Positions 4,398 to 53,522 of a DNA stretch of 64,000 nucleotides are shown one piece after another. The translations under genes and the position numbers were made by a program. Each line of letters opens with the position of its first letter. The first letter of the stretch is position 1. The stretch is from the NCBI GenBank assembly GCA_963792415.1, contig CAWBVY010000004.1, positions 544,001 to 608,000 of the forward strand, given 5' to 3'. Below the pieces are notes generated by a model. That model was not told the origin of the DNA, ran no database searches, and saw only the letters and a program-made list of their open reading frames with translations. Source of the DNA: Candidatus Deferrimicrobiaceae bacterium. GTDB taxonomy: Bacteria > Desulfobacterota > Deferrimicrobia > Deferrimicrobiales > Deferrimicrobiaceae.

Positions 4398-5540
4398 CGC
4401 GTCCGCCGCCTGCCGAAGCGGATCTACCTATCCCCCCCCCACATGGGGGCAACTGAGCGGGAACTACTGCTCGACGCCTTCGACTCGAACTGGATCGCCC
4501 CGATCGGGCCCCACGTGGACGCCTTCGAGCGGGAGTTCTGCGAAACCGTCGGGGTATCCTGCGCCGTGGCCCTTTCCAGCGGGACGGCGGCTCTCCACCT
4601 GGCGCTGCTGTTGCTAAGCGTCGGCCCAGGGGACGAGGTCATCGTCTCCACTTTCACGTTCGCGACGACGGCGAACGCCGTCATGTACATGGGGGCAACA
4701 CCGGTCTTCATCGACAGCGATCCGATCAACTGGAACATGGACCCCGGCCTGCTGAGGGAGGAACTTGAATCTGCCGCGAAGCGGAGAAAGCTTCCCAAAG
4801 CGGTGATCGTGGTCGACCTGTACGGCCAGTGCGCGGATTACGGCCCGATCATTGAGGTGTGCGAGAGGTATGGGGTGCCGGTGGTGGAGGACGCTGCCGA
4901 GGCGCTCGGGTCTACCTACAAGGGGAGGCCCGCAGGATCCTTCGGCGCGGTGGCCACCTTCTCGTTCAATGGGAACAAGATCATTACGACTTCGGGTGGA
5001 GGAATGCTCGTTTCAATGGATGCGGGAATGGTCGAGCGGGCCCGGCACCTGGCGACGCAGGCGAAGGATCCCGCTCCGCACTATCAACATTCCAAAATCG
5101 GGTACAACTACCGTTTAAGCAATCTTCTGGCAGCCGTGGGCCGTGGACAGTTGCGGGTTCTGAAGGACAGGGTGTCGAGAAAGCGGGAAATCTTCCAGTT
5201 CTATCAGCGTGCTTTCGCTGATCTTCCCGGCGTCTCCTTCATGCCGATCGCAGGTTACGGGGAGCCGAATTATTGGCTGACATGCATCCTGGTCGATCCG
5301 GTCGGGTTCGGAGCGACGAGGGAAGACATCCGGCAGGCACTGGAAAAGGAGAACATCGAGTCCCGACCTCTCTGGAAGCCAATGCACCTGCAACCTGTTT
5401 ACAAGGATTGCAGAGTGAGAAGCGGATCGGTTTCCGAAGGGATCTTCCGGGATGGCCTGTGTCTTCCCAGCGGGACGGCGCTGACGGATGGGGAACTTCG
5501 GCGGATTGCAGGGATTATTCGGGCCGCCTGCAGGGGATAG
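4394..5540 (+). CDS. DegT/DnrJ/EryC1/StrS aminotransferase (PglE/EpsN-like); start uncertain (ATG 4394 with an indel, CTG 4410 or ATG 4443)
   Basis: KRIYLSPPHMG, SSGTAALHLAL, EDAAEALGS, SFNGNKIITTSGGG, GYNYRLSN motifs. Confidence 0.9.
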
Positions 5541-13887: not shown

Positions 13888-14906
13888 TGCGGGTTCTCGT
13901 CGCGGGGGGGGCCGGATTCATCGGCTCGAACTTCATCCGGTACATCCTCGGGGCCCACGGCGATTGGTCCGTCGTGAACGTGGACAAGCTGACCTACGCG
14001 GGGAACCTCGCGAATCTGGCGGACATGGTGGGGGAGCCGCGGTACCGCTTCCACCGGGCCGACATCTGCGACGCGGCCGGGATCGCGCGGATCTTCGCGG
14101 AGGAGACGCCGGAGGCGGTCGTGAACTTCGCCGCCGAGACGCACGTGGACCGCAGCATCGACGACCCCGCGCTCTTCCTGCGGACGAACATCCTCGGCAC
14201 CCAGGTGCTGCTCGACGCCGCCCGCAAGGCGAAGGTCGCCCGGTATCTGCAGATCTCGACCGACGAGGTGTACGGCTCGCTGGGGGCGACGGGGCACTTC
14301 TCCGAGGATTCGCCTCTGAAGCCCAACTCCCCCTACGCCGCCAGCAAGACGTCGGCGGACCTGCTGGTGCGGGCCTACGGGAAGACGTTCGGCCTGCCGG
14401 TGCTGGTCACCCGCTGCTCGAACAATTACGGTCCGTACCAGTTTCCCGAGAAGCTGATCCCGTTCTTCGTCACGCTGCTGCACGAGGGGAAGCCGGTGCC
14501 GGTGTACGGCGACGGGATGAACGTGCGCGACTGGATCCACGTGGAGGACCATTCGCGGGCCGTGGAGGCGGTGCTGCAGCGCGGGCGCCCCGGCGAGATC
14601 TACAACGTGGGCGGGGGAAACGAGCGCACGAACATCGAGATCACGAAGCTGCTGATCGCCGCGATGGGGAAGGACGAGCGGGCGATGAAGTTCGTCCCCG
14701 ACCGGCCGGGCCACGACCGCCGGTACGCGATCGACGACGCCAAGATCCGGGCGGAGCTGGGCGTCGTCCCGCAGGTCGCGTTCGAGGAGGGGCTGCGCGC
14801 CACGGTGCGCTGGTACATCGACAACGAACCGTGGTGGCGGGCGGTCCAGTCCGGCGAATACCAGTCGTTCTACGATCGCTGGTACGTCCGCAAGGACCGC
14901 GCCTGA
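13887..14906 (+). CDS. rfbB: dTDP-glucose 4,6-dehydratase
   Basis: GGAGFIGSN, DKLTYAGN, AAETHVDRSI, ISTDEVYG, CSNNYGPYQFPEKLIP, DRPGHDRRYA. Confidence 0.96.
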   Translation: MRVLVAGGAGFIGSNFIRYILGAHGDWSVVNVDKLTYAGNLANLADMVGEPRYRFHRADICDAAGIARIFAEETPEAVVNFAAETHVDRSIDDPALFLRTNILGTQVLLDAARKAKVARYLQISTDEVYGSLGATGHFSEDSPLKPNSPYAASKTSADLLVRAYGKTFGLPVLVTRCSNNYGPYQFPEKLIPFFVTLLHEGKPVPVYGDGMNVRDWIHVEDHSRAVEAVLQRGRPGEIYNVGGGNERTNIEITKLLIAAMGKDERAMKFVPDRPGHDRRYAIDDAKIRAELGVVPQVAFEEGLRATVRWYIDNEPWWRAVQSGEYQSFYDRWYVRKDRA

Positions 14907-38468: not shown

Positions 38469-39314
38469 TCAGGGACGGAACTCCGTTCCGAAGACCCCCG
38501 CAAGCGAATCGGGCGGTCCGGCGATCTCGTGGAATTCCCGGAACCTCTCCTCCCGGAGCCGCCGGAATGCGGTCTCCAGTACGCTTTCCGTCGCCACGCC
38601 GAGGATGTCCCTGCGAAAGTCGCGTGCCTCGGCCAGGATCACGTCGAAGTCGTGGATCGTCCCCAGGAGGGTCTGGAAGGCGTGGAGGCGGTTCGCCGTT
38701 TCTTCCGTCGCCTTCGGGAAGAGCGGGAGGAGGATCTCCGCGGCGTAGCGGTAATTCTTGAAAGCGAGCCGCATCCGGTGCAGCGCTTCCGGGTGCGCCG
38801 GGTCGAGGGCCGCATCCCGGTGCTTCGAGACCTCGCGCTCCAGCCTTCCGAGAAGGCCCGGGGCGAGGATCGCCGCCTCGAGCCGGTCCCCGAGACCCCC
38901 GGCCCTCTTGGGGAAAGGTACCCGAAGGCGGCGGGCGGACCGCGTCCCGAGGCACGTTCGCACCCGGGACTCCCATCGGAGGACGTCGCTCGCCACCAGG
39001 ACGGCATACAGGCGGGAGGGTTCGTCCCCTTCCGGGACGAATTGAAGGATCCAGTCCCTCTTCACGTGGGCATCGCGCAGCTTTCCCAGCGGGATCATGA
39101 GCGTTTTCAGGGACGACCGGGCCGCGCGCAGCCCCGGATCGGGCCCCAGAATCGTGTCGCTCACGGCGATCCAGGCGAGGACCCTCCGGATCGCCACCCG
39201 CAGGTCGTGGACGGCCTCGTCGGAGGTCGGGTCGGCGGAAGTCCGCTTCAGCCGCGCCCGGAACCGGGCTGCCCGCGTCCGCCCCGACTCCTCGAGGAAG
39301 GCGGTCGCTTCCAA
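38469..39314 (-). CDS. CHAD domain protein (polyphosphate-binding)
   Basis: EAVHDLRVAIRR, LGKLRDAHV, LHRMRLAFKNYRYAAE, QTLLGTIHD. Confidence 0.9.
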   Translation of the reverse strand: MEATAFLEESGRTRAARFRARLKRTSADPTSDEAVHDLRVAIRRVLAWIAVSDTILGPDPGLRAARSSLKTLMIPLGKLRDAHVKRDWILQFVPEGDEPSRLYAVLVASDVLRWESRVRTCLGTRSARRLRVPFPKRAGGLGDRLEAAILAPGLLGRLEREVSKHRDAALDPAHPEALHRMRLAFKNYRYAAEILLPLFPKATEETANRLHAFQTLLGTIHDFDVILAEARDFRRDILGVATESVLETAFRRLREERFREFHEIAGPPDSLAGVFGTEFRP

Positions 39315-39323
39315 CGGGCTCCC

Positions 39324-39707
39324 CTAGCCCCCCATCTCCTTGCGGAGGGAGGCGGCGGCCTTCCCGATGCGCTCCAGGTCCTTTCGCCGCCCCTTCCGCG
39401 GCTTCACGGAGAGGTCGTGCAGGACCCCCAGCATCCTCTCGACCCGGGCGGCGGGGAGCGATTTTCCCTCGACGGCCTCGACCGCGGCCGCGATCTCCGC
39501 CTCCGTATTGGCGACGTACCGCTCCGCGATCTCGGTGAACATCGCCCGCAGGCGGCGCAGCTCGAGGACGAGCATATCCTGCGCCGTCTTCCGGGAAGGC
39601 TTGCGCGCGAGCGCCGCGGCGATGCTCTTTTTTTCCGGCGGGGGGGCGGCCCCCGGTTTCGCCGAGGCCGTCTTCCCCCTGGTCTGTTTCCCTTTGGTGG
39701 TGGCCAT
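39324..39707 (-). CDS. Basic hypothetical protein (127 aa)
   Basis: Closely spaced between the TMK-like and CHAD genes; AAGGGG RBS; Lys/Arg-rich ends (KPRKGRRKDL). Confidence 0.75.
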   Translation of the reverse strand: MATTKGKQTRGKTASAKPGAAPPPEKKSIAAALARKPSRKTAQDMLVLELRRLRAMFTEIAERYVANTEAEIAAAVEAVEGKSLPAARVERMLGVLHDLSVKPRKGRRKDLERIGKAAASLRKEMGG

Positions 39708-39718
39708 TCGATGTCCCC

Positions 39719-40417
39719 TTATCCGTTCGGCGAGATGACGGCCTCGATCCGGGTCTGCAGGTCCCGCGTGATGGCGCGGGGAACCCGCATCCCGTTGATG
39801 GTTGCGAATCCGTAGATGGCCTGCAGCTTGTTGAAGGTCCGGTGGAGCTCGGACTGGTAGCGGATGAACGAGTCGTACCAGGACCGGTTGTACCCGATGT
39901 CCATTCCCGACTCCCAGTAGTCGAGCTCCCGCCCGCGGTAGATGTACCGCTCCATGAGCTTCTGGGGAGCCACGCGAAGGTACAGCACCAGGTCGGGGAC
40001 GAGGGCGATGCTGTACACCGATTGCAGCCAGGCGAGGTCGGCTCCCCGCACGATGTCACGCGCCATCAGGGTATAGATGTACCGGTCGGCGAGGACGATG
40101 AACCCCGCCCGCAGGGCCGGGAGGATCCGGTGCTCCAGCTGGTCCGCGAAATCGGTGGCGTAGAAGAGGGACAAGGTGCGCGGGGAGAGGACGTTCCCCT
40201 CCTTCGCCTCCGCCAGTTCATTCGCCACGAGGGTGGAGCGCTTCAGCCCCACGTGCTCGACCGCGTGCCCGCGCCGCTCCAGCCACTCGGTGAGAAAGGC
40301 GATCTGCGTGCTCCGCCCGGACCCGTCCGGCCCTTCGAGCACGACGAGCTTCCCCTTGAGGTCTCCGGTGGCGACCCCCGGAATCCCCTTGCCGTAGAAC
40401 GTTCTTGGCCGGTTCAT
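39719..40417 (-). CDS. Thymidylate kinase-like protein, copy 2 (Walker A Lys replaced by Arg)
   Basis: LVVLEGPDGSGRSTQ, IVLADRY, PDLVLYL; ATGA overlap with copy 1. Confidence 0.85.
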   Translation of the reverse strand: MNRPRTFYGKGIPGVATGDLKGKLVVLEGPDGSGRSTQIAFLTEWLERRGHAVEHVGLKRSTLVANELAEAKEGNVLSPRTLSLFYATDFADQLEHRILPALRAGFIVLADRYIYTLMARDIVRGADLAWLQSVYSIALVPDLVLYLRVAPQKLMERYIYRGRELDYWESGMDIGYNRSWYDSFIRYQSELHRTFNKLQAIYGFATINGMRVPRAITRDLQTRIEAVISPNG

Positions 40418-41115
40418 ACCCGCCACCCCCTCGGGACCGTCACCTTGTATCGCGCGAGGTCGATCCGGTCGCGCAGGATCGCCCGGACCTCCTCCTGGAT
40501 CGCCTCCACGGGACGATCCGAGTTGATCCGGGTGAACCGGTGCCGGCGCGCGAGGGTTTCGTACGCCTTGTGGATCCTCCCCTGGAAGATCTTGAAGCTC
40601 TCCACAGGGTCCGGGGAGAGGCCGAGGTCCATTCCCGCCTCGTGGTATTTGAGCGCCGGGCGACCGACGAGGATCCGGTCCAGCGCCGTCCGGAGCGGGA
40701 GGGAGAAGTAGAAGGTGATGTCCGGCTGGAAGGCGAAGCTGTAGAGCTGCTCGACCCACTCCTGCGGGCACCCCCGGACGGTGTCGCGGGCGAGGGCGGT
40801 GAACTTGTACCGGTCCGCGAGGACGATGAACCCCGCCTTGAGCATCGGAAGGATGTTCCGTTCGTACCGGTCGGCGAAATCGGTGCAGTGGATGAGGGAG
40901 AAGGTGGTCGGTGTAAGGAGGTTCTGCTTCTTCCCCCGCCGGGTGGCGCTCCGGACGATCTCGGAGGAGTTCCACTCGGTGAAGAAGACTTTGTACCCGG
41001 ACAGCTCCAGCCAACGCTTGAGGAGGTACACCTGGGTCGACTTCCCCGATCCGTCGAGTCCCTCGACGGCGATCAGCTTTCCGGGGGTGGCGTTCGGGTT
41101 GGATATTTCCGGCAT
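40414..41115 (-). CDS. Thymidylate kinase-like protein, copy 1
   Basis: LIAVEGLDGSGKSTQ, IVLADRY, PDITFYF. Confidence 0.88.
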   Translation of the reverse strand: MPEISNPNATPGKLIAVEGLDGSGKSTQVYLLKRWLELSGYKVFFTEWNSSEIVRSATRRGKKQNLLTPTTFSLIHCTDFADRYERNILPMLKAGFIVLADRYKFTALARDTVRGCPQEWVEQLYSFAFQPDITFYFSLPLRTALDRILVGRPALKYHEAGMDLGLSPDPVESFKIFQGRIHKAYETLARRHRFTRINSDRPVEAIQEEVRAILRDRIDLARYKVTVPRGWRV

Positions 41116-42658: not shown

Positions 42659-42834
42659 TCGGGATATCCCCCCTCCGGGATCATTGTAACGGGAACGGGC
42701 GCTCCTGCCCATGCCTTGTCGTGGAAAGGATTGTTGGATGCGCGCCGGGGCCGGAACGATCCCGGCGCGCATCCCGTTTCCGGAACAGGGCATCTTATTA
42801 TGGATTTGGTCGAGCCTGGCATATAGGGGGGGAG

Positions 42835-43749
42835 ATGGACAAGGAAAAGCGGGAGATCATGAAGAATATCGGGAAGTTCGTCGACCCTTATCGCATCACG
42901 AAAGGGAAGAGGTTCCGCCTCAAGGACATCGACCCGGGCGATACGGGCGACTACGGGTCGGAGCAGAAGCCGAGGGCCAAGGACCTGCTGGCGAAAGGCG
43001 TGCAGTGGATGGCGGAGGAGCAGGACAAGTTCTACGCCGCCGATCGCAACTCGATGCTGCTGGTGTTCCAGGCGATGGACGCGGCCGGAAAGGACGGCAC
43101 CATCCGCCACGTCATGTCGGGCGTGAACCCGCAGGGTTGCCAGGTGTACTCCTTCAAGCAGCCCTCCATGGAAGAGCTCGACCACGACTTCCTGTGGCGC
43201 TACCACAGGTGCCTCCCGGAACGGGGCCGCATCGGGATCTTCAACCGCTCGTACTACGAGGAGGTGCTCGTGGTCCGGGTGCACGAGGAACTGCTCGAGC
43301 GCCAGAGGATGCCGCGGGACCTGGTGACCAGGAGCATCTGGGAGGAGCGCCTGGAGGACATCGCGGGGTTCGAGCGCTACCTGGCGCGGCAGGGCACCAT
43401 CGTGCTGAAGTTCTTCCTGCACGTCTCCCGGAAGGAGCAGAAGCGGCGGTTCCTGGAGCGCCTGGAAATGCCGGAGAAGAACTGGAAATTTTCCACGTCC
43501 GACGTGACGGAGCGCGGTTACTGGGGGAAGTACATGGCGGCGTACGAGGATGCCATCCGGCGGACGGCCTCCAGGGAGGCGCCGTGGTACGTGATCCCGG
43601 CCGACAACAAGTGGTTCACCCGCCTCGTGGTCGCGGCGGTGATCGCCGAGGCGTTCTGGAAGCTGAAGCTCGCCTACCCGCAGGTCGACGACGCGAAGAA
43701 AAGGGAACTCGCCGCGGCGCGCAAGGCATTGATGGGCGAAAAGAAATAG
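42835..43749 (+). CDS. ppk2: Polyphosphate kinase 2 (class III-like)
   Basis: FQAMDAAGKDG, GVNPQG, HDFLWR, IFNRSYYE, KNWKFS, PWYVIPADNKW. Confidence 0.95.
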   Translation: MDKEKREIMKNIGKFVDPYRITKGKRFRLKDIDPGDTGDYGSEQKPRAKDLLAKGVQWMAEEQDKFYAADRNSMLLVFQAMDAAGKDGTIRHVMSGVNPQGCQVYSFKQPSMEELDHDFLWRYHRCLPERGRIGIFNRSYYEEVLVVRVHEELLERQRMPRDLVTRSIWEERLEDIAGFERYLARQGTIVLKFFLHVSRKEQKRRFLERLEMPEKNWKFSTSDVTERGYWGKYMAAYEDAIRRTASREAPWYVIPADNKWFTRLVVAAVIAEAFWKLKLAYPQVDDAKKRELAAARKALMGEKK

Positions 43750-43761
43750 GGCGGCTGCCGG

Positions 43762-44268
43762 TCACATGCGGGGAGTTCGGGGAAGTCGGGTCGCCGTCCC
43801 CTTGCCGTCCTCGATCCAGAGGAACTTCGCCGTTCCTTTCGGCACCCCTTTGTCCGTTTCCAGGGCCACCACGGCTCCCTTTCGGAGAGGGAAACCTCCC
43901 GGGACGGAGATCAGGGCCGCGGCGATGCCGCCCAGGTCCGGCTCGTGGCCCACGAAGGCCGCTTCCGCGGGGTTTCCCGCACGTGCCAGCAGGGCGCGGA
44001 GGGCCCGAAGGTCGAAGCCGGGAGAGAGTTCCCTGGCGACCACGACCTCGCCCTTGTGTTTCAGGCGCTCCGCGAGGATCTCGGCGGTCTGGACGGCGCG
44101 CAGCAGGGGGCTCGTGAAGATGACGTCCGGGGCGGCGCCCGTCTTGCGGGCCCGCCGGGCGATCTTCCGGAAGGAGAGCCGGCCCGTCGTCGTCAGGTAG
44201 CGGGAACCGTCCGGAATCGTCGCCGCTCGCTCGATCGCCTCCGCGTGGCGGACGAGGTACACTTTCAC
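43762..44268 (-). CDS. sixA: Phosphohistidine phosphatase SixA
   Basis: YLVRHAEA, TSPLLRAVQTAE, VGHEP, KGAV. Confidence 0.9.
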   Translation of the reverse strand: MKVYLVRHAEAIERAATIPDGSRYLTTTGRLSFRKIARRARKTGAAPDVIFTSPLLRAVQTAEILAERLKHKGEVVVARELSPGFDLRALRALLARAGNPAEAAFVGHEPDLGGIAAALISVPGGFPLRKGAVVALETDKGVPKGTAKFLWIEDGKGTATRLPRTPRM

Positions 44269-44271
44269 GGG

Positions 44272-44511
44272 CTACCCCGTACCCTTCTTCTTCTTCTTCC
44301 CTTTTCCCTTCTTCCCTTTCTTTTTCTTCTTCTTCTTCCCCTTCTTATCCTTCTTCTTGTCCTTCTTCCCCCGCTCCGGACGGGCCGCTTCACCCTCCGC
44401 CGGCGGCGGGAGGCCCGCGGTCTTCGACGTCTTCCTCGTTCCGGCCGCTTCCTCCATCGCGTGCCGCAGCCCTTCCCACTTCTCCTCCGGGATCAGCGTC
44501 TTCTTACCCAT
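44272..44511 (-). CDS. Poly-lysine-tailed microprotein (79 aa)
   Basis: Overlaps the parA stop and ends 3 nt before the sixA start; 22 Lys in the last 31 residues; GGAGG RBS. Confidence 0.8.
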   Translation of the reverse strand: MGKKTLIPEEKWEGLRHAMEEAAGTRKTSKTAGLPPPAEGEAARPERGKKDKKKDKKGKKKKKKKGKKGKGKKKKKGTG

Positions 44512-45253
44512 GCTGCAACACCTCCTGCGCCAGCGCGCGGTAATCCTCGGCCCCCCGTCCCCCCGGCTGGTAGGAGAGGACGTCCTTCGAGCGGGCGGGC
44601 GCCTCGGCGAGGGAGATGCTCTGCCGGATGACCGTCCGGAACACCTTGTGGCGCAACGTTTCCCGGAGGTGCTCCTCGACCTGGCGGGAGAGGGAAGTCC
44701 GGACGTCGTACATGCAGGGGAGGATGCCCAGAATCTCCATCGGAAATCCGGCCTCGCGGATGGTCTTCACCATGCCGAGGATCTTTTCCAGTCCGTTCAG
44801 GGCCATGTACTGGGTCTGGAGCGGGATCAGCAGGGAACCGGAATACACCATCCCCATCAGGGAAAGGGCGCCCAGCGACGGGGGGCAATCCACGATGACG
44901 AAATCGAACCCCCGCATTCCGGCCAGGGCGTCCTTCAACGCCAGTGGGTACTCCGACGGCCGCTCGCGGAGGATCCGCTTCTCCGTTTCGGCCAGGACCG
45001 GGGTGGAGGGGAGGACGGTGAGGTGGGGGAGGGCGTGAAACGCCTCGCGGGGTTCCGCCTCGCCCGTGAGCACTTCCGCGACGGTCGGGCCGCCGGACGT
45101 CTCCACCCCGAGCGACTCCGTGAGCCCGGCCTGGGGGTCCAGGTCCACCAGGAGGACTTCCCGGCCCACTTCCGAGAGCGCCGCGCCGAGGTTGACGGCG
45201 GTCGTGGTCTTCCCGGTGCCGCCCTTCTGGTTGATGACCGTGATCTTCCGCAT
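44504..45253 (-). CDS. Orphan ParA/Soj-family ATPase
   Basis: Deviant Walker A NQKGGTGKTTT, DLDPQ, DCPPSLG, LAEAP; no parB nearby. Confidence 0.93.
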   Translation of the reverse strand: MRKITVINQKGGTGKTTTAVNLGAALSEVGREVLLVDLDPQAGLTESLGVETSGGPTVAEVLTGEAEPREAFHALPHLTVLPSTPVLAETEKRILRERPSEYPLALKDALAGMRGFDFVIVDCPPSLGALSLMGMVYSGSLLIPLQTQYMALNGLEKILGMVKTIREAGFPMEILGILPCMYDVRTSLSRQVEEHLRETLRHKVFRTVIRQSISLAEAPARSKDVLSYQPGGRGAEDYRALAQEVLQHG

Positions 45254-45434
45254 GGCGCCACCCCCTGAATCCTCGCTCTCCCGGAGATTTCCGATTATAA
45301 GTCAGGCCCGCGGGTTCCGCCGGGGAAATCCGTATGGAAATCCTTGCGGGTCGGGTACACTGAAAGGGAGGTTTCCGGGCATCCGGCGACACGTTCTGCG
45401 ACGGAAGAAAATTTCCCTCTGGAGGTCGAACGCC

Positions 45435-45917
45435 GTGCTCTCCGCGCGCCTGATCGAACTGATCCAGACCAACGCCGAACACCTGACCCGCGACGTGCTG
45501 AAGGATTATGCCACCAACCCGCGGACGCGCCACTGGAACGTCGTGCCCGTCGCCGAGCTGGAACAGCGCGTGATCAGCACCTACAGGAACCTGGGAAACT
45601 GGATCGGCGACCCCAGGGAGGACGCGGTGCAGGCGGAGTACGAGGAGTGGGGCCGCAAGCGGTACCGGAACGGGATCCCGCTGAGCGAGGTCGTGTTCGC
45701 CGTGATCCTGCTGAAGCAGCACCTGAGGAGATACATCCGCGAGCACGGGCTCGTTGAGCACGTCCGGGACCGCAACGCCTCGCAGGAATTCCTCCCGGTT
45801 CACCTGTACGGGATCCAGGAACTGAATTCCCTGGTGGGGGATTTCTTCGACAAGGCGCTCTACCACCTGGCGCGGGGCTACGAGATGGAGGCCCGGGCGG
45901 CCCAGGGCACCCGGTAG
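45435..45917 (+). CDS. Hypothetical all-helical protein (RsbRD_N/globin-like sensor fold suspected)
   Basis: GGAGG RBS and GTG start; GRKRYRNGIPLSEVV..L, FFDKALY..ARGY pattern. Confidence 0.72.
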   Translation: MLSARLIELIQTNAEHLTRDVLKDYATNPRTRHWNVVPVAELEQRVISTYRNLGNWIGDPREDAVQAEYEEWGRKRYRNGIPLSEVVFAVILLKQHLRRYIREHGLVEHVRDRNASQEFLPVHLYGIQELNSLVGDFFDKALYHLARGYEMEARAAQGTR

Positions 45918-46013: not shown

Positions 46014-46676
46014 CTACGCCAGCGGCCCCTGGTGCCGGACGTCCTTCCCCTTGACCATGAAGATCACGTCCTCGCAGATGTTGGTGGCGTGGTCGGCGAT
46101 CCGCTCGATGTGGCGCGAGACGAGGATCAGGTCCATGGCGCGGGGGATGGTGGTCGGGTCGGACATCATGAAGGTCAGCAGCTCCCGGAACACCTGGTCC
46201 TTCAGCTGGTCGACCTCGTCGTCCTTCAGGATCGTCCGGTACGCCAGTTCGTCGTCCCCGTTGACGTAGGCGTCCAGGGAGGCCTTCAGCATCTCCTGCG
46301 CGATGTCGGCCATCCGCGGGATGTCGATCAGCGGCTTGAGAGGCGGAACGGCGAGCAGCGACTCCCCCCGCTCCACGATGTTGATCGCCTGGTCCCCGAT
46401 CCGCTCCATGTCCACGATGATCTTCATCGCCGCCGTGATGAACCGCAGGTCGGCGGCCGCCGGCTGGCGCAGGGCGATGAGCTCCAGGCACGCCTCGTCG
46501 ATCTCGACGTGGAGCTGGTTGACCTGGGACTCCATCCCCCGGACCTCGGCGAGGATGCCCGCGTCGCGCTGCACGAGCGCATGGATGACCCGGCGGGTCA
46601 TCTGCTCCGCCAGCCCCCCCATCCGCAGGACCATTTCCCGGACATCCGCCAATTGACCCGTGTAATGCTTCTTCAT
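46014..46676 (-). CDS. phoU: Phosphate signaling protein PhoU
   Basis: QPAAADLR, DMERIGD, DDEVD, IERIADHATNICE. Confidence 0.96.
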   Translation of the reverse strand: MKKHYTGQLADVREMVLRMGGLAEQMTRRVIHALVQRDAGILAEVRGMESQVNQLHVEIDEACLELIALRQPAAADLRFITAAMKIIVDMERIGDQAINIVERGESLLAVPPLKPLIDIPRMADIAQEMLKASLDAYVNGDDELAYRTILKDDEVDQLKDQVFRELLTFMMSDPTTIPRAMDLILVSRHIERIADHATNICEDVIFMVKGKDVRHQGPLA

Positions 46677-46702
46677 CTCCGTTCACCGCCTTCCGGTATG
46701 TG

Positions 46703-47464
46703 TCAACCAAACCGCCCGGTGATGTACTGCTCCGTCCGCTTGTCCGACGGATTGGTGAAGATCTTTCCGCTCTTGTCCATCTCGATCAGTTCGCCCATGA
46801 GGAAGAATGCGACCTGGTCGGAGATGCGCGCCGCCTGCTGCATGTTGTGCGTCACCACGGCGATGGTGTACTTCTCGCTCAGGTCCTCGATCAGCTCCTC
46901 GATCTTCGCGGTGGATGCCGGGTCCAGCGCCGAACACGGCTCGTCCATCAGGAGCACTTCCGGCTCGACGGCGAGGGCCCTCGCGATGCAGAGCCGCTGC
47001 TGCTGGCCGCCGGAGAGGGAGATCCCCGGCTGGGAGAGGTGATCCTTCACCTCGTTCCAGAGCGCGGCCATGACGAGCGACCGTTCGACCCTCTCCGCGA
47101 TGTCCCCTCGAGAGAGTGCCTTCCCGTTCAGCTTGAGCCCGACGGCGACGTTCTCGAACACCGACATGCGGGGGAACGGGTTCGGCTGCTGGAAGACCAT
47201 CCCGACCCGCCGCCGCAGGTATACCGGGTCGACCCGCTCGGAGTGGATGTCGACGCCGTCCAGCAGGATCCGCCCGCTGATCCGGAAACCGGGGGTCATG
47301 TCGTGCATCCGGTTGAGGCACCGGATGAAGGTGCTCTTACCGCACCCGGAGGGACCCATCACCGAGGTGACGGAATTTCGAGCGATGTCCATCCGGATCT
47401 TCTTCAGCACCTGGTTCTCCCCGAACCAGTTGCTCAGGTCGTGGATCTCGAAGATGTTCGCCAT
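46703..47464 (-). CDS. pstB: Phosphate ABC transporter ATPase
   Basis: [47 protein letters not shown]. Confidence 0.97.
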
Positions 47465-47479
47465 CTCGCTTCCTTCCTT

Positions 47480-48319
47480 CTACCGCTTCTCCCGGGTGAG
47501 AACCCGGGCGGCGATGTTGATCAGCAGTACCATCGTGATCAGCACGAGGGCCCCCGCCCACGCCTTGTCGTGCCAGTCCGCGTAGGGCGAGATCGCGTAT
47601 GTGAACACCTGGAGCGGCACCGCCGCCATCGGCTGGTCGAGCTTCGTCTGCCAGAACTGGTTTCCGAGCGCCGTGAAGAGAAGAGGCGCCGTCTCTCCTA
47701 TGATGCGCGACATGGCGAGGAGGATACCCGTGAGGATCCCCGGCCACGCCGTCCGCACCGTGATGCGCAGCGTGGCTTTCCACCGCGCGATCCCCAGCGC
47801 CAGGGCGGCTTCCCGCACCGTCGTCGGCACGGTCCGAAGCATGTCCTCCGTCGTCCGGACGACGACGGGGATGAAGATCATGGAGAGCGCCGCCGCGCCG
47901 GCCCAGGCGGAGAACCGCTTCATCGGAAGGACCAGGAGAACGTAGGCGAAGATCCCCATGATGATCGAGGGGACGCCGGTCAGCGTGTCGACGGCGAACC
48001 GGACGGCGGAGGCGAACTTTCCCCTGCCGTACTCGGCGAGGTAGATGCCGGACATGACCGCCACCGGCACCGACCACGTCATCGTGAGGAGGGTGATGAC
48101 GACGGTGCCGAGGATCCCGTTTGCAATCCCGCCCCCGGGTTCCCCGACCGGGTGGGGAAGGTCGACGAGCAGGGTCCACCGGAGTTCCTTCGCGCCCTTG
48201 ATCACCAGGTCGAAGAAGATCAGGAACAGCGGCAGGACAACGAGCAGCGCGCAGAGGTAGAAGACCCACTTCATGGCGCGGTCGGCGGCCTTGCGGCGGA
48301 AGGTGATCGTCCCCGTCAT
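47480..48319 (-). CDS. pstA: Phosphate ABC transporter permease
   Basis: IYLAEY, GVPSIIMGIF, REAALALG, RIIGETAPL. Confidence 0.96.
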   Translation of the reverse strand: MTGTITFRRKAADRAMKWVFYLCALLVVLPLFLIFFDLVIKGAKELRWTLLVDLPHPVGEPGGGIANGILGTVVITLLTMTWSVPVAVMSGIYLAEYGRGKFASAVRFAVDTLTGVPSIIMGIFAYVLLVLPMKRFSAWAGAAALSMIFIPVVVRTTEDMLRTVPTTVREAALALGIARWKATLRITVRTAWPGILTGILLAMSRIIGETAPLLFTALGNQFWQTKLDQPMAAVPLQVFTYAISPYADWHDKAWAGALVLITMVLLINIAARVLTREKR

Positions 48320-48320
48320 G

Positions 48321-49250
48321 TCAGATCCCCCGCGAGGCGCGCGCGACCATCTTCGAAAGCATCCCCTTGGCCGCGAAGTTGACGATGAGTGTCAACAGCA
48401 TCAGGAGAAGGCCGATCAGGATGAGCGACGAAAGCTGGAGGCCGCCGGCCTCCGCGAATTCGTTGGCGATCACCGCCGCCATGGAGTACCCCTGCTGGAA
48501 CAGGGAGGCGAAGATCTCGGGCCGGTTCCCGATGACCATCGTGACCGCCATCGTCTCGCCCAGCGCCCGCCCCAGGCCGAGGATGGTGGCGCCGAAGATC
48601 CCCGGGAGGCAGTGCTGCCCGATCACGATGCGGATCATCTCCCAGCGGGTCCCCCCGAGCGAAAGGACCGCCTCCTTCTGCCGCTGCGGGACGGTGGCCA
48701 GCACCTCCCGGGTGACCGACAGGATGAACGGGATGATCATGATCGCGAGGAGCACCCCCGCCGCGAGCATGCTCGGGCCGTACACCGGCCCCTTGAAGAG
48801 GGGGATCCAGCCGAGGTATCTGGTCACCGGCTTCATGAACACGTCCCGGAGGATCGGCACCAGGACGAAGATCCCCCACAGGCCGTAGATGACGCTGGGG
48901 ATGGCGGCGAGGAGTTCCGCCAGCAGCGAGACGGGGGCCTTCAGCCACGGCGGTGCGAATTCGTTGATGAAGATCGCCGCCCCGACGCTGAGCGGGACGG
49001 CGATCAGCAAGGCGAGGAAGGAGGAGACCAGGGTTCCGAAGAGGAAAGGGAGCACCCCGAACTGCTCGAGTACCGGGTCCCATGTGCTGGTGACGAGGAA
49101 CGAGGCCCCGAACTTCCGCAGGGCGGGGAGCGATTCGCGCAGCAGCACCGCGGACAGAAGGACCGCGAGGAAAAGGACGACGGAGGCGAAGAAGGCGGAC
49201 GCCTTTTCGAACACGAGGTCTTTCGATATTTTTCCGGTTCGCGCCGCCAT
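48321..49250 (-). CDS. pstC: Phosphate ABC transporter permease
   Basis: ELLAAIPSVIYGLWG, GRALGETMAVTMVIGN, IANEFAEA. Confidence 0.96.
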   Translation of the reverse strand: MAARTGKISKDLVFEKASAFFASVVLFLAVLLSAVLLRESLPALRKFGASFLVTSTWDPVLEQFGVLPFLFGTLVSSFLALLIAVPLSVGAAIFINEFAPPWLKAPVSLLAELLAAIPSVIYGLWGIFVLVPILRDVFMKPVTRYLGWIPLFKGPVYGPSMLAAGVLLAIMIIPFILSVTREVLATVPQRQKEAVLSLGGTRWEMIRIVIGQHCLPGIFGATILGLGRALGETMAVTMVIGNRPEIFASLFQQGYSMAAVIANEFAEAGGLQLSSLILIGLLLMLLTLIVNFAAKGMLSKMVARASRGI

Positions 49251-49281
49251 GCGAAATCAGGGTCCTCGTTTTACAGAGACA

Positions 49282-49307
49282 GGAAGGGGGGGATGGTCCC
49301 CCCTTCC
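49282..49307. other. GC-rich stem-loop between pstS and pstC (attenuator or mRNA stabilizer)
   Basis: ggaagggggg-gatggt-ccccccttcc 10-bp stem. Confidence 0.55.
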
Positions 49308-49353
49308 CGATCCATATTGATGAACGGCAGTCCGCGGAGGCGGACCGCCGGGT

Positions 49354-50400
49354 CTAGTACAGCGATTTTCCCTTGAAGGAGATCTGCTTCAGCGTCTGGT
49401 CGACCTTCTCCACCACGTCTTTCGGCAGCGGCGCGTAGTCGAGCGCGGCCTCCATCTTCTGGCCGTCGCGGATCGCCCACTTGAGGAACTGTACAACGGC
49501 CTTCCCCCTGGCCTCGTCCTTCTGGTCCTTGTACACGAGGATCCAGGTGAGCCCGGAGATGGGCCATGACTCCTTCCCGGGAGCGTCGACGAGCGAGACG
49601 CGGAAATCGGCGGGCATCGACTTCGCCACTCCCGCGGCGGCGGCGGAGGTCGCCTCCAGTGTTGGTGTTACGAATTGTCCGTCCTTGTTCCGCAGCGACG
49701 CCACCGTCATCTTGTTCTGCTTGGCGTACGCGAGCTCGACGTATCCGATGGCCCCCGGCGTCTGTTTCACCACGCCGGCCACCCCCTCGTTCCCCTTGCC
49801 GCCGATCCCCAGCGGCCAGTTGACCGCCTTGCCGTGTCCGACCTTGGCCCGCCACTCGGTGTTCACCGTGGCCAGGTAGTTCGTGAAGATGTCCGTGGTA
49901 CCCGACCCGTCGGAGCGGTGGGCGACCACGATGTCCGCGTTCGGCATCGTGACGGTCTTGTTCAACTCCGCGATCCTCGGATCGTTCCAGCGGGTGATCT
50001 TCCCGAGGAAGATCCCGGCGAGGAGGTCGGGAGTCAGTTTCAGGCCGGACCCGACCTTGTCGAGGTTGTACACGACCACGACGGCGCCCATCGCGGTGGG
50101 GATGTGCAGGATCGCGCCCGGAAGCTTCGCCATCTCCTCCGCGGACATGGGGGCGTCCGTCGCGCCGAAATCGACGGTCCCCGCGGTGATCTGCTTGATC
50201 CCCCCCCCGGAGCCGATCGACTGGTAGTTGAACCTCACGCCCGGATTGGCGTTCGAATATTCGTAGAACCATTTCGAATAGAGCGGGTAAGGGAACGTCG
50301 CCCCCGCCCCGTTGATCATCAGTGGATCCGCCGCGAACGCGAATGACACGACGGCGAGCGTTGCCAGGACCCCTGCAAGAACTCCGTAGATCTTTTTCAT
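49354..50400 (-). CDS. pstS: Phosphate ABC transporter substrate-binding protein
   Basis: Signal peptide; GAGATFPYP, YQSIGSGGG, RSDGSGTT, GKGNEGV, IGYVE. Confidence 0.97.
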   Translation of the reverse strand: MKKIYGVLAGVLATLAVVSFAFAADPLMINGAGATFPYPLYSKWFYEYSNANPGVRFNYQSIGSGGGIKQITAGTVDFGATDAPMSAEEMAKLPGAILHIPTAMGAVVVVYNLDKVGSGLKLTPDLLAGIFLGKITRWNDPRIAELNKTVTMPNADIVVAHRSDGSGTTDIFTNYLATVNTEWRAKVGHGKAVNWPLGIGGKGNEGVAGVVKQTPGAIGYVELAYAKQNKMTVASLRNKDGQFVTPTLEATSAAAAGVAKSMPADFRVSLVDAPGKESWPISGLTWILVYKDQKDEARGKAVVQFLKWAIRDGQKMEAALDYAPLPKDVVEKVDQTLKQISFKGKSLY

Positions 50401-50479: not shown

Positions 50480-50501
50480 CGTGTGTGAAGTTCGTGTTAA
50501 G
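50480..50501 (-). promoter_or_regulatory. Putative PHO box upstream of pstS
   Basis: Minus strand 11-nt-period repeats CTTAACACGAA/CTTCACACACG (TTHACA-N5 type). Confidence 0.55.
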
Positions 50502-50583: not shown

Positions 50584-50919
50584 ATGAGGAAAGTGGCGTT
50601 CTTGACAGCGTTGATCGCAGCGGTGGTCTTCGCAGCGGGTCCGGGATTCGCCGCCGCTCCGGACAAGCCCCTCGTCCTGAAGGCCGAGAAGTCGAAGGGG
50701 CCGGTCACCTTCGACCACGCGAAGCACGGCAAGGATTGCGCCGCATGCCACCACAAGGACAAGGCCGGGGCCGAGCAGAAGTGCGGGAAGTGCCACGGCG
50801 ACAAGACCGAGGGGAAGAAGCTCTCCGCGAAGGAAGCGTTCCACACCCAGTGCAAGGATTGCCACAAGAAGTCGAACAAGGGTCCCTACAAGAAGTGCGA
50901 CGACTGCCACAAGAAGTAG
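50584..50919 (+). CDS. Periplasmic tetraheme cytochrome c3-family protein
   Basis: GGAGG RBS, signal peptide, VTFDHAKH, four CxxCH motifs (CAACH, CGKCH, CKDCH, CDDCH). Confidence 0.92.
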   Translation: MRKVAFLTALIAAVVFAAGPGFAAAPDKPLVLKAEKSKGPVTFDHAKHGKDCAACHHKDKAGAEQKCGKCHGDKTEGKKLSAKEAFHTQCKDCHKKSNKGPYKKCDDCHKK

Positions 50920-51011: not shown

Positions 51012-52793
51012 TTACCCGGGGATCCGGATCGTGAAGCGGGTGCCGACGCCTATGCGGCTTTCCACCCGGATCGTCCCCCCGTGCGATTCGACGATGTGTT
51101 TCCCGATGGAGAGACCCAGGCCCGTCCCCCCCAGATCCCTCGACCGGCCCTTGTCGACGCGGTAGAACCGCTCGAAGATCCGGGAAAGGTGGTCCTGGGA
51201 GATCCCCGGTCCGTCGTCCGCCACCTCGAGGAGGCATGCGTCCCCCTCCATCCGGCCGGAGAGGGTGACGCGTCCCCCCGCCTTCCCGTACTTCAGGGCG
51301 TTGTCCACCAGGTTCGAGACGGCGAGGGCCAGCTTCCGGACGTCGGCGCGCAAGGTTCCCTCGCTCGCCGTCACGTCGATAACCTTTCCCATCCGGCCCG
51401 CCGCGGGACGATGCGGGTCGGCCACCCGAAAGAGGAAGACGGAGAGGGGGATCTCCTCCTTACCCAGCGGCACGGAGCCGGACTCGGCGCGGGAAAGCTC
51501 GAGGAGATCGTCGAGCAATCGTTCCATCCGGAGGGCGTTCCCGAGCGCCACGTCGACGAAGGACGGTTCCGGCGCGGCCCCTTCCCGGATCGAATCCTGG
51601 ATCGCCTCGAGGTACCCCCGGATGTTCGTCAGCGGCGTGCGCAGTTCGTGGGAGGCGTTCGACACGAAGTCGCTCTTGATCTGCGCCAGCCGCCGCTCCT
51701 CGGTGACGTCCCGAAGGGTGAGGAGGACGTCCACGTCCGATTCCCCGAGGTACCGGACCGTCGTCCCGGAACATCGGATCGTCCGGCTTCCCCGGCGCGT
51801 CATGATGGAAACGTCCCGCGATTTCGGCTGCTCGCCCTTCATCCATCCGTCGATGAAGGCGAGGGCCTGGGGATGACGGATCACTTCCGGGTACGGGCGT
51901 CCCGCGCCCATCGTCTCCGAGGCGTCGAAGATCTTCCCGGCTTCACGGTTCATCATCCGCACCGACCGGTCCGCCGCGATGACGATGACCCCGTCGTCGA
52001 GGTTGGCGAGCAGCGTCTCCAGGCGGGCTTTCCCCGCGTCCAGCTGTCCGATCGTGGCGGCAAGGTGCGACGCCATCCGGTTCATCGCGTTCGCCATGGC
52101 TTCTAGCTCATCGCCCGTCCGGATCTGGGCGCGCCGCGCGAGGTTGCCGGCCCCCATCTCCTTCGCCGCCGCCCGCATCTCCGCCAGGGGGCCGGTGACC
52201 TTCCGCGCCATGAAGGCGGCTCCCCCGAGGATGAGGAGGAGCGCGGCGAATCCCGTTCCCCAGATGATCGCGGTGATCTGCCAGAGGCGGCGGGTGAGGA
52301 CCGCGACGGGGACCGAGGCGCGGGCCGCTCCGACGATCGCGCCCTCGATCGAGATCGGGATGGCCGCGTACCGCTGTTCCTCGCGGACGGTGATGCTTCG
52401 CCGGAGGGATACCCCCGTCGTCCCCGACAGTGCGTCGCGGATCTCGGGGTGGTGCGCGTGGTTCTCCATGCCCGAAACGCCGGCCGCCCCCACGGCGGAA
52501 TCGGCGACCACGGTTCCGTCGGGCAGGACGACGGTGATGCGCGCTCCGATCTCCTTCCCGAGGCGGTCCCCTTCCCGGGAGATTCGCTCCCTGTCCTGGA
52601 CGGGGTCCGCGAGCAACGGCCGGAACGTTTCGGCGACGATGTGGGCCCGGGCGAGCAGGTTCTCGTCCGCGTCCGCCATCACGAGACTTCGCACGAGGAA
52701 GAAGCCGACGGCGCCGGCGATCAAAAGCGCGATCCCGGCGATCACGAGGTGCGTGAGGAAGAATTTCGCGGCGATGGAGAGGCGGCGGGCCAA
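51012..52793 (-). CDS. phoR: PhoR-like sensor histidine kinase (HAMP, PAS, HisKA, HATPase)
   Basis: ENHAHHPEI, DFVSNASHELRTPLT, NLVDNALKY, IFERFYRVDKGRSR..GGTGLGL. Confidence 0.92.
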   Translation of the reverse strand: MARRLSIAAKFFLTHLVIAGIALLIAGAVGFFLVRSLVMADADENLLARAHIVAETFRPLLADPVQDRERISREGDRLGKEIGARITVVLPDGTVVADSAVGAAGVSGMENHAHHPEIRDALSGTTGVSLRRSITVREEQRYAAIPISIEGAIVGAARASVPVAVLTRRLWQITAIIWGTGFAALLLILGGAAFMARKVTGPLAEMRAAAKEMGAGNLARRAQIRTGDELEAMANAMNRMASHLAATIGQLDAGKARLETLLANLDDGVIVIAADRSVRMMNREAGKIFDASETMGAGRPYPEVIRHPQALAFIDGWMKGEQPKSRDVSIMTRRGSRTIRCSGTTVRYLGESDVDVLLTLRDVTEERRLAQIKSDFVSNASHELRTPLTNIRGYLEAIQDSIREGAAPEPSFVDVALGNALRMERLLDDLLELSRAESGSVPLGKEEIPLSVFLFRVADPHRPAAGRMGKVIDVTASEGTLRADVRKLALAVSNLVDNALKYGKAGGRVTLSGRMEGDACLLEVADDGPGISQDHLSRIFERFYRVDKGRSRDLGGTGLGLSIGKHIVESHGGTIRVESRIGVGTRFTIRIPG

Positions 52794-52799
52794 GCGGCG

Positions 52800-53522
52800 T
52801 CAGCTTTCCCGAAGTTTGTAGCCGACGTCCTTGACCGTCTCGATCGCCTTGGCCAGGAAGGGGATCTTCTGGCGAAGCTTCGCGATGTGGACGTCGACCG
52901 TGCGGTCGATCACGTGCGTGTCCTCCCCCCAGACCTTCGTAAGGATCGCCTCGCGGGAGAGGACCCGCCCCGAAGAGGAGAGGAGCGTCTGAAGGATGCG
53001 AAATTCCTTGGAGGTGAGGGAGACCGGCTTCCCCTGGCACCGGACCTCGTGGCGGGCCACGTCCATCCGCAGCTCCCGGTAGGCCAACGTTGCCGGCTCG
53101 GGTTCCTGGGACCCGGGGCGACTCCGGCGCAGGATCGCCTTGATCCGGGCCACGACCTCCCTCGGGCTGAACGGCTTCGGTATGTAGTCGTCCGCGCCCA
53201 GCTCCAGCCCGACGATCCGGTCCGTCTCGTCCCCCTTCGCGGTGAGCATCACCACCGGCGTCCTGCCGATCGCATCGTCCGACCGGATCGCCCGCAGCAC
53301 TTCCAGCCCGTCGGCCTTCGGGAGAAGGATGTCGAGGAGAACCAGGTCGGGCTTCTCCTTCCTCGCCTTGAGAATCGCCGTTTCTCCGTCCGGCGCGAGA
53401 AGCGCGGAGAACCCCTCCTTGCGCAGGTAGTGGGCGAGCAGGTCCCGGATCTCTTTTTCGTCTTCGACGACGAGGATCGAGCGCGGCAAGGCGGTCTCCG
53501 GGGTTTCCGATGCGAGACCCAT
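52800..53522 (-). CDS. phoB: PhoB/PhoP-like OmpR-family response regulator
   Basis: ILVVEDE, LTAKG, GLELGADDYIPKPF, RTVDVHIAKLRQK; next to phoR and the pst operon. Confidence 0.9.
   Translation of the reverse strand: MGLASETPETALPRSILVVEDEKEIRDLLAHYLRKEGFSALLAPDGETAILKARKEKPDLVLLDILLPKADGLEVLRAIRSDDAIGRTPVVMLTAKGDETDRIVGLELGADDYIPKPFSPREVVARIKAILRRSRPGSQEPEPATLAYRELRMDVARHEVRCQGKPVSLTSKEFRILQTLLSSSGRVLSREAILTKVWGEDTHVIDRTVDVHIAKLRQKIPFLAKAIETVKDVGYKLRES

Follow-up and report, generated by a model that had tools for sequence, protein, structure and literature searches.

Small ParA proteins followed by a partner of about 70 to 80 aa are known from the type Ib partition pairs (ParF-ParG and delta-omega), in which the flexible basic N-terminus of the partner activates the ATPase. 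For the wider group of ParA/MinD (A/D) ATPases, parts of PMC10241942 and PMC11407121 give a rule by which the ATPase is contacted by the positively charged N-terminus of its partner and the cargo by the remainder of that protein, and gene neighborhood has correctly implicated the cargos of such ATPases (PMC10241942, in part). One cargo-like body of particular interest here is the granule of inorganic polyphosphate (polyP). In Pseudomonas aeruginosa, the Lys-rich disordered tail of AlgP, whose repeat number varies, localizes to polyP granules and governs their spacing (PMC9239181, in part). Within the sections drawn on here, a 2025 review of organelle positioning names AlgP alone for polyP granules and leaves open whether the localization of polyP and polyhydroxybutyrate (PHB) granules needs energy (PMC13052382), and a 2026 mBio study likens polyP spacing to ParA-mediated patterns, calls the mechanism undefined and reports that spacing in S. 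elongatus is independent of McdAB, the only ParA-family ATPase of that organism (PMC13556221). The spacing and inheritance of polyP granules in bacteria is an open question. Here we analyze a two-gene unit, an orphan parA and a 79-aa gene with a Lys-rich tail, found in a 64,000-nucleotide stretch of DNA (the window: positions 544,001 to 608,000 of contig CAWBVY010000004.1, assembly GCA_963792415.1) from Candidatus Deferrimicrobiaceae bacterium. We propose, tentatively and with somewhat less than even confidence, that this pair is a ParA-type cargo-positioning module for polyP granules, with the binding that this entails predicted from the anatomy and context of the genes.

The proposal goes back to an earlier note made from the letters of the window, which added that no ParA-type system had been described for polyP granules. 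The literature consulted agrees on this last point. Full-text searches of main texts found no such system; the word polyphosphate occurs 0 times in a 2024 review of A/D ATPases (PMC11407121) and in a study of H. neapolitanus (PMC10241942), and the parts of PMC13052382 and PMC13556221 used here are in line with this.

An orphan ParA and its lysine-tailed partner

The pair and the genetic elements that adjoin it most closely are as follows.

44504-45253, minus strand: orphan parA, encoding a 249-aa ATPase of the ParA/MinD family (deviant Walker A motif, KGGTGKTT)
44272-44511, minus strand: small partner gene, 79 aa, with a poly-Lys tail
43762-44268, minus strand: sixA-like histidine phosphatase gene, 168 aa, GTG start
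45254-45320, minus strand: conserved parA-proximal leader and promoter, with a -10 element TATAAT at 45294-45299 and a G-rich Shine-Dalgarno sequence (SD) before the ATG

These coordinates confirm the tight arrangement of parA, the 79-aa gene and sixA that the earlier note had described. The first two genes overlap by 8 nt (44504-44511), and a gap of 3 nt (44269-44271) separates the stop of the small gene from the start of sixA.

Family searches matched ParA to AAA_31 (1.3e-41) and CbiA (3e-23). The motif KGGTGKTT occupies residues 10-17, and in an alignment of 52 rows K10, G11, G12, K15, T17, D37, D39 and D122 were invariant. By these motifs, namely the deviant Walker A, the signature Lys10 and the other nucleotide-binding positions, the protein is assigned to the A/D ATPase family. 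R185 of the D-x-R-T motif was also invariant in this alignment and may correspond to the DNA-binding Arg of Bacillus subtilis Soj; ATPases that position cargo on the nucleoid bind DNA nonspecifically as ATP-bound dimers, by a basic surface at the C-terminus. PADLOC returned marginal P-loop matches alone. The best relative of solved structure was T. thermophilus Soj (1wcv, 1.9e-47); the McdA structure 6noo was distant, with a match of 5.5e-19 that covered residues 2-180 only.

To place this ParA relative to the chromosomal partition proteins, we compared it with the rest of its genome and with its relatives. As searched, with 72 kb set aside, the genome (2.84 Mb; marker-based completeness, 100%) holds a sole ParB_N match, at C4:210246-210518. 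This match adjoins another parA, whose product is 42% identical to the orphan ParA and which lies about 378 kb from the window, so that the missing parB of the earlier note is borne out. Beside the orphan parA itself there is no parB; the next gene is the 79-aa K-rich gene. When a collection of 5.8 billion proteins was searched, only 8 clusters among the matches listed were 71-96% identical to ParA, and the next best reached at most 49%. We then built a tree of 44 rows, comprising 10 members of the orphan clade, 12 Soj proteins from relatives and 22 of the 112 other listed matches, picked across the list. The orphan clade received a support of 100/100 on a stem of 1.35 changes per site, the Soj proteins of the lineage itself formed a separate clade (100/97), and the orphan clade was weakly (85/88) sister to a group that includes ParAs of Bacteroidota. 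Placement outside the chromosomal Soj clade, without a ParB partner, had been set beforehand as a test of the proposal, and the tree agrees with it. In addition, we read by eye the genes that follow 26 next-best full-length ParAs from elsewhere: 20 of these were followed by an open reading frame (ORF) with a ParB-type N-terminal motif and none of the 26 by a K-rich microprotein. Together, the separate clade, the missing parB and the lack of a microprotein after the next-best ParAs argue that this ParA is a true orphan and not the chromosomal Soj.

The 79-aa ORF is a real gene, because it has a strong SD (AGGAGGTG, 6-13 nt ahead of the ATG), a GC content at third codon positions of 0.84, similar to that of the neighboring genes, 117 related clusters with a conserved N-terminus (51-117 aa long, retrieved with residues 1-45) and an excess of synonymous change. 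Over codons 1-27 of 38 distinct sequences, we counted 2772 synonymous versus 1925 nonsynonymous codon differences, which places the N-terminus of the partner under purifying selection. The N-terminus reads MGKKTLIPEEKWEGLRHAMEEAAGTRK and is followed by a Pro/Ala/Glu-rich linker and then by the Lys tail (residues 49-79), for which translation gives 22 Lys in 31 residues, the same count as in the earlier note. An alignment of 48 rows showed M1, L6, P8, K11, W12, G14, L15, A18, E21 and A22 to be invariant, I7 to be invariant or nearly so, and K4 to be nearly invariant. The start MGKKT thus constitutes a basic N-terminus that precedes a conserved helix: AlphaFold2, run from the alignment, predicted a helix at residues 9-25 (pLDDT of the block, 72-84), a linker with a pLDDT below 50 and a tail that was helical at low confidence. 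The linker and the tail are free to vary in sequence and length, yet they remain K/E/G-rich. Since the tail is kept for composition and not for sequence, it would be suited to multivalent electrostatic binding. This anatomy of charged N-terminus, helix, linker and K-rich tail matches the published rule for the partners of A/D ATPases and fits an adaptor that may contact ParA and stimulate it. The layout that the earlier note had described agrees with the alignment and the AlphaFold2 model.

Direct searches placed the small protein in no described family. It matched no Pfam, NCBIfam or PADLOC family, an Atlas search with it gave no usable feature match, and the structure rows name no family. 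An exhaustive HMMER search with residues 1-47 yielded 7 matches at E <= 0.001, which were 5 short family members and 2 long repetitive proteins. Longer, fused forms of the partner were not found in the search, which is weak evidence. A complex prediction with a ParA dimer, ATP/Mg and partner residues 1-47 gave an ipSAE of 0.00 in both runs; these were made without controls, and the result is evidence neither way. The segment KKTLIP of the partner resembles the ...ALIP end of the ParB N-terminal motif. Among the 117 relatives, 5 (P0025, P0030, P0032, P0056 and P0120) carry aberrant tails that resemble frameshifts in the AAG-rich tract. In genome G002 (L035, 10390-10681), a deletion after codon 14 of the small gene shifts the frame, and the tail is still strongly basic, here Arg-rich, because it is AAG-rich; this variant may reflect an error of sequencing, mark a pseudogene or be a change that is tolerated.

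With regard to expression, metatranscriptome contigs from four runs cover parA (44556-45275) with few differences, as well as the divergent gene u160 described below. This matching passed over the K-tail region (44274-44368) as a repeat, and RNA libraries can hold DNA; these contigs are a weak hint of expression only.

The pair in its phosphate and polyP island

The orphan ParA was present in 10 of the 70 genomes of the order, namely in 8 of 28 from the genus of the window (the window counted), in 2 of 2 from a second genus and in 0 of 40 from the other twelve genera. Judging from this distribution and from the HMMER search with the partner, both proteins are a lineage-specific invention. Deferrimicrobium has been assigned to the uncultured MBNT15 group in the parts of the literature consulted. 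In the window, the pair is embedded among genes for phosphate uptake, phosphate signaling and polyP metabolism.

42721-43749, plus strand: ppk2, convergent with sixA, with a match to TIGR03709
41120-42793, minus strand: ppx, Ppx-GppA plus domain III/HD
38469-39314, minus strand: CHAD-domain gene, a polyP-binding module
46014-50400, minus strand: phoU-pstB-pstA-pstC-pstS, with phoU at 46014-46676 and pstS at 49354-50400
51012-52793, minus strand: phoR
52800-53522, minus strand: phoB
45435-45917, plus strand: RsbRD_N-like gene (u160), 160 aa, stand-alone and divergent from parA

Family matches verified the flanking ppk2, ppx, CHAD and pstSCAB-phoU genes that the earlier note had listed, and showed that phoBR is also present. 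The start codon of ppk2 is uncertain, and the listed ORF overlaps the 5' end of ppx.

To examine how far this context is conserved, we collected 76 metagenome loci with the N-terminal motif of the partner and mapped the window proteins on them by tblastn. Where more than 300 nt of upstream sequence was available (58 loci), parA abutted the small gene in 57; in the remaining one (L194), parA is in broken pieces. sixA came next in 54 of the 58 loci with more than 400 nt downstream (exceptions, L180, L183, L187 and L188), and a convergent ppk2 followed sixA in 22 of the 27 loci with more than 1.5 kb downstream. Among the 29 loci of at least 3 kb, 24 contained ppk2, ppx or CHAD and 15 contained pst, phoU or phoBR; 28 contained one or the other gene group, and a single locus (L180) neither. 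The gene upstream of parA was far less constant. In 25 loci it was the divergent u160 (16 loci), a diacylglycerol kinase-like (DAGK) gene (4), phoU (2), phoR (1) or another gene (2), and the species genomes show a similar variety; some of these loci were probably retrieved twice, by two routes. Four of these kinds of neighborhood share a conserved stretch of approximately 65 nt ahead of the parA start codon, in which ...CTGGCTTATAAT... and a G-rich SD are found. The invariant unit consists of the leader, parA and the small gene. Because the upstream neighbor varies while the leader and the context stay, the linkage has survived several rearrangements, and within the main clade the module has been kept in the Pho/polyP island through at least five of them. 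The conservation of the polyP linkage that the earlier note had put forward as a test thus stands for the main clade (28 of 29 loci); it does not extend to a diverged copy in genome G023, to which we return below.

The tight coupling to sixA has a different origin. The third protein of the arrangement matched His_Phos_1 (3.6e-10) and scored 70.8 bits against the SixA model TIGR00249, for which the cut-off is 74.5; it carries RHAEA at residues 7-11. For comparison we took 9 genomes of the order that lack this ParA and carry the same ppk2 type, and inspected 10 regions around their ppk2 genes. Four of these regions (G011, G012, G082 and G084) contain phoB-phoR-sixA and a convergent ppk2, G055 has sixA and ppk2 at a contig start, G007 and G010 have phoB-phoR and ppk2 without sixA, and the three remaining regions show other contexts. 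In G002, G005, G018 and L174, phoB-phoR is followed by parA and the small gene, and then by sixA wherever the contig continues. By gene order, sixA is natively the third gene of phoB-phoR-sixA, and the parA pair can be read as two genes that were inserted after phoR and ahead of sixA. Since sixA is native to the phoBR operon, its close spacing to the pair was inherited and says little about a joint function. sixA is probably a Pho-signaling gene beside the inserted module and not a core part of it; the earlier note had counted it as a component of the system, which was an over-reading given that ParA-negative relatives carry phoB-phoR-sixA.

We next considered the polyP capacity of the lineage. 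PPK1 (PF02503) was found in 0 of the 70 genomes, and PF13090 was also unmatched in the genome of the window. PPK2 was found in 31 of the 70 genomes, and any polyP made by the lineage would have to come from PPK2-type enzymes, as PPK1 was not found in any of them. Apart from the ppk2 gene near sixA, which passes TIGR03709 (385 bits; cut-off, 247), no polyP kinase gene was found in the genome of the window. The CHAD gene of the island, 5 kb from the module, is likewise the only CHAD match in that genome, and CHAD has been described as a specific polyP-binding module (PMC6537752, in part). PPK2 occurred in 9 of the 10 ParA-positive and in 22 of the 60 ParA-negative genomes; these genomes are kin and not independent, so the comparison does not amount to a statistical test. 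CHAD and Ppx were both present in 5 of 5 ParA-positive genomes tested.

Several other features of the island are conserved or lie next to the genes discussed above.

39324-39707, minus strand: unknown 127-aa gene (u127), between ppx and CHAD
about 39719-40400 and 40414-41115, minus strand: two tandem thymidylate-kinase-like (Tmk) genes, between ppx and CHAD
50584-50919: class III (c3-type) cytochrome gene, neighbor of pstS
50483-50501, minus strand: Pho-box-like direct repeat CTTAACACGAACTTCACAC, upstream of pstS

The tandem Tmk genes and u127 are kept between ppx and CHAD in most relatives; islands with the Tmk pair are those of the window, L046, L130, L132, L138, L149, L154, L202 and L203. 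The first Tmk gene passes the dTMP-kinase model (87.2 bits; cut-off, 83.25) and the second is about 40% identical to it. Such a nucleotide-kinase pair, fixed in a polyP island, may use polyP-derived phosphate. The c3-type cytochrome gene adjoins pstS or ppk2 in most mapped islands of relatives, which is odd but conserved. Directly upstream of phoB, with a 1-nt overlap, the segment 53522-54871 encodes a DAGK-like catalytic domain fused to a low-molecular-weight phosphotyrosine phosphatase domain, and the DAGK part stands alone in several relatives. The match of u160 to PF14361 is weak (0.0067), and its Atlas features score 0.97 to RsbRD_N clusters. This protein resembles the N-domain of a stressosome sensor and may act as a regulator or belong to the module as an additional component.

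The repeat upstream of pstS, which is lineage-specific, consists of two copies of CTTAACAC separated by 3 nt, after which more degenerate copies recur every 11 nt. The 6 loci aligned here conserve it, and a scan that allowed up to 4 mismatches detected no second site of this kind in the window. Relatives have comparable sites (L035 at 14842-14871, 6024-6042 and 4623-4641, plus other loci), which precede a GH1-PHP-GT21 set, a 640-aa pyruvate-kinase-barrel gene and GNAT-phoB-phoR. From these sites a candidate Pho regulon emerges, to which glycolipid remodeling may belong. At parA itself, a consensus sigma-70 scan called no promoter, though a conserved TATAAT is visible in the alignments. A direct repeat upstream of parA, GGAAATCC, was considered as an operator or centromere and rejected: it has 7 matches in the window against 4.35 expected and is partly conserved in 16 loci. 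A search for iterons or a centromere around the module returned nothing but the AAG-type coding repeats of the tail.

Proposed polyP-granule positioning and competing explanations

According to our model, ATP-bound ParA dimers would coat the nucleoid, and the small protein would concentrate on polyP via its multivalent poly-Lys tail. The basic N-terminus and helix 9-25 of the partner would then contact ParA and stimulate ATP hydrolysis, so that a ParA depletion zone would arise around each granule. In this way granules would be set at intervals over the nucleoid and passed on to both daughter cells, as carboxysomes are by McdAB. PolyP is proposed as the cargo because it is the obvious polyanionic particle in this neighborhood. 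Direct observation covers the two genes and their conservation, the leader that belongs to them, the orphan status of the pair and its lasting placement in the Pho/polyP island. A fuller version of the model, possible but still more tentative, holds that this is the first ATP-driven ParA-type system for polyP granules, with an adaptor that grips the polymer by poly-Lys and uses no shell or receptor. In the absence of a protein shell or a specific receptor, the length of the tail would tune the grip on polyP. The pair would be a portable two-gene unit with its own promoter, inserted into phoB-phoR-sixA beside the only polyP kinase gene. As a bolder addition, the SixA-like phosphoramidase might also clear phosphate or polyP adducts from the lysines of the tail.

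Should the model be correct, an inorganic condensate would be a new class of cargo for the ParA/MinD repertoire, and the adaptor would be reduced to a peptide and a charge tail. With its compact size (249 aa plus 79 aa), the candidate opens the question to direct tests, both in vitro and in a heterologous host. Its reach is limited, as both proteins are confined to one uncultured lineage.

A number of observations weigh against the model. All binding steps, the stimulation of the ATPase and the binding to the nucleoid are steps that we infer, and the granules themselves are presumed for this uncultured lineage. PolyP synthesis by the island is an assumption, because the PPK2 families best matched by ppk2 are named for polyP use (ADP-polyphosphate phosphotransferase, 400 bits, below the cut-off of 450). 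There are 9 ParA-negative genomes with the same ppk2 type, and the 7 of them with ppk2 in a pho/pst context have the same island without the module, which is accessory for that reason. No Pho box was found at the parA promoter in the window (up to 4 mismatches), and membership of the module in the Pho regulon is without direct support. Lys-rich tails bind DNA too, as KPAA peptides of AlgP do (PMC9239181, in part). The conserved context has limited independent weight, because both families are confined to one narrow lineage. Finally, the G023 pair (L038, 3143-5065) lies outside the island. Its ParA is 72% identical and its partner has 52 aa and no linker; the pair is preceded and overlapped by an XrtH-type exosortase gene (TIGR04177, 126 bits; cut-off, 86) and flanked by PIN-domain genes and a two-partner-secretion pair. 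The island of G023, on another contig, reads TrxR-CHAD-u127-Tmk-Tmk-ppx-phoU-pstBACS, with ppx adjoining phoU and with parA, sixA and ppk2 missing, and no PPK2 was found in this genome (91% complete, 490 contigs). The pair may act without a polyP kinase close by, its role may have diverged in this copy, or ppk2 may be absent from the assembly. Neither the position of ParA relative to the Soj clade nor the state of its linkage to polyP genes refutes the model outright, and we regard it as partly supported.

The G023 copy also bears on a rather unlikely alternative, in which the tail binds DNA nonspecifically and the pair acts on the nucleoid without a granule cargo, for instance by compaction, by chromosome organization in phosphate stress or as a diffuse ParA regulator. 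The G023 copy has been kept at a distance from polyP genes, and no PPK2 was found in its genome; ParA is Soj-like in sequence (1wcv, 1.9e-47), and Lys-rich tails of the histone H1 type bind DNA (PMC9239181, in part). However, a partner on the same matrix as ParA would yield no localized stimulation, on which known systems rely. Moreover, DNA-binding tails of the AlgP type have a K/A/P composition, whereas the tail of the partner is K/E/G-rich, and an action on the nucleoid leaves the stay of the module in the Pho/polyP island through rearrangements unexplained. That same stay bears on the idea of a type Ib plasmid-partition cassette, like ParF-ParG, that has been domesticated or is decaying, sits in a recombination-prone island and has no role in phosphate. 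The size and order of the genes appear to match type Ib loci. The pair comes with a promoter and leader of its own, is found at several positions and occurs in a scattered set of genomes (10 of 70); PIN toxin genes surround the G023 copy, and ParA is on a long branch of uncertain origin with a weak (85/88) sister relation to Bacteroidota-type ParAs. We nevertheless consider a cassette improbable, because family searches detected no ribbon-helix-helix (RHH) or other DNA-binding domain in the partner and no iteron- or centromere-like repeats surround the module. The N-terminus of the partner is under purifying selection and the ATPase motifs are intact, contigs from RNA libraries cover parA (a weak point), and all of the at least five positions in the main clade are within the same island.

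The proximity to pho genes raises a further alternative, that the cargo is a Pho-signaling or transport assembly (PstSCAB-PhoU-PhoR) or the membrane, with the tail binding anionic lipids or an acidic protein surface. In relatives, the module does lie directly after phoR or phoU, or before phoB, and it splits phoB-phoR from sixA in several of them. Against this, a membrane-targeting helix is not apparent in ParA, the module is equipped with a leader of its own and does not rely on pho promoters, and the parts of the reviews PMC13052382 and PMC11407121 used here offer no precedent. We judge a cargo of this kind very improbable.

Comparison with described systems

The pair resembles the type Ib loci in that a small ParA is followed by a small partner with a basic N-terminus. 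The type Ib partners, however, end in an RHH fold and bind repeats near their operon. For the partner described here we obtained no RHH match, the structural model consists of one helix and a low-complexity tail, and no iteron-like repeats were found around the module. Soj and the ParA-ParB (ParABS) systems are the closest family in sequence, with 42% identity to the Soj of the same genome, Soj proteins as the best PDB matches and the motifs kept. The present ParA differs from them as an orphan without ParB in a clade apart from the Soj of its lineage.

Among granule-associated proteins, PhaM, PhaF and PhaH join PHB granules to the nucleoid by Lys-rich segments (PMC13052382, in part), much as the tail would do here. 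They are single proteins for which that source gives no known ATPase, whereas a dedicated ParA accompanies the partner in this locus. AlgP shares with the partner a Lys-rich, disordered tail of variable repeat length that is tied to the spacing of polyP granules (PMC9239181, in part). AlgP comprises 352 aa and combines KPAA repeats with a helical domain at its N-terminus. Its presumed role is to tie granules to DNA, and the parts of the literature drawn on give no known ATPase for it. In contrast, the partner has 79 aa and a K/G/D/E-rich tail without KPAA repeats, and is paired with a ParA.

A close parallel in layout is McdA-McdB. Both systems combine an orphan ParA-type ATPase with a small, fast-evolving and partly disordered partner encoded directly downstream, with cargo genes adjacent. 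The similarity of ParA to McdA is weak, the partner has no homology to any family detected, and we found neither a Pfam or NCBIfam match that would make it an McdB nor carboxysome genes among the annotated neighbors. The two systems would share the logic of a gradient on the nucleoid; the proposed cargo here would differ in being an inorganic polymer without a protein shell, held by charge alone.

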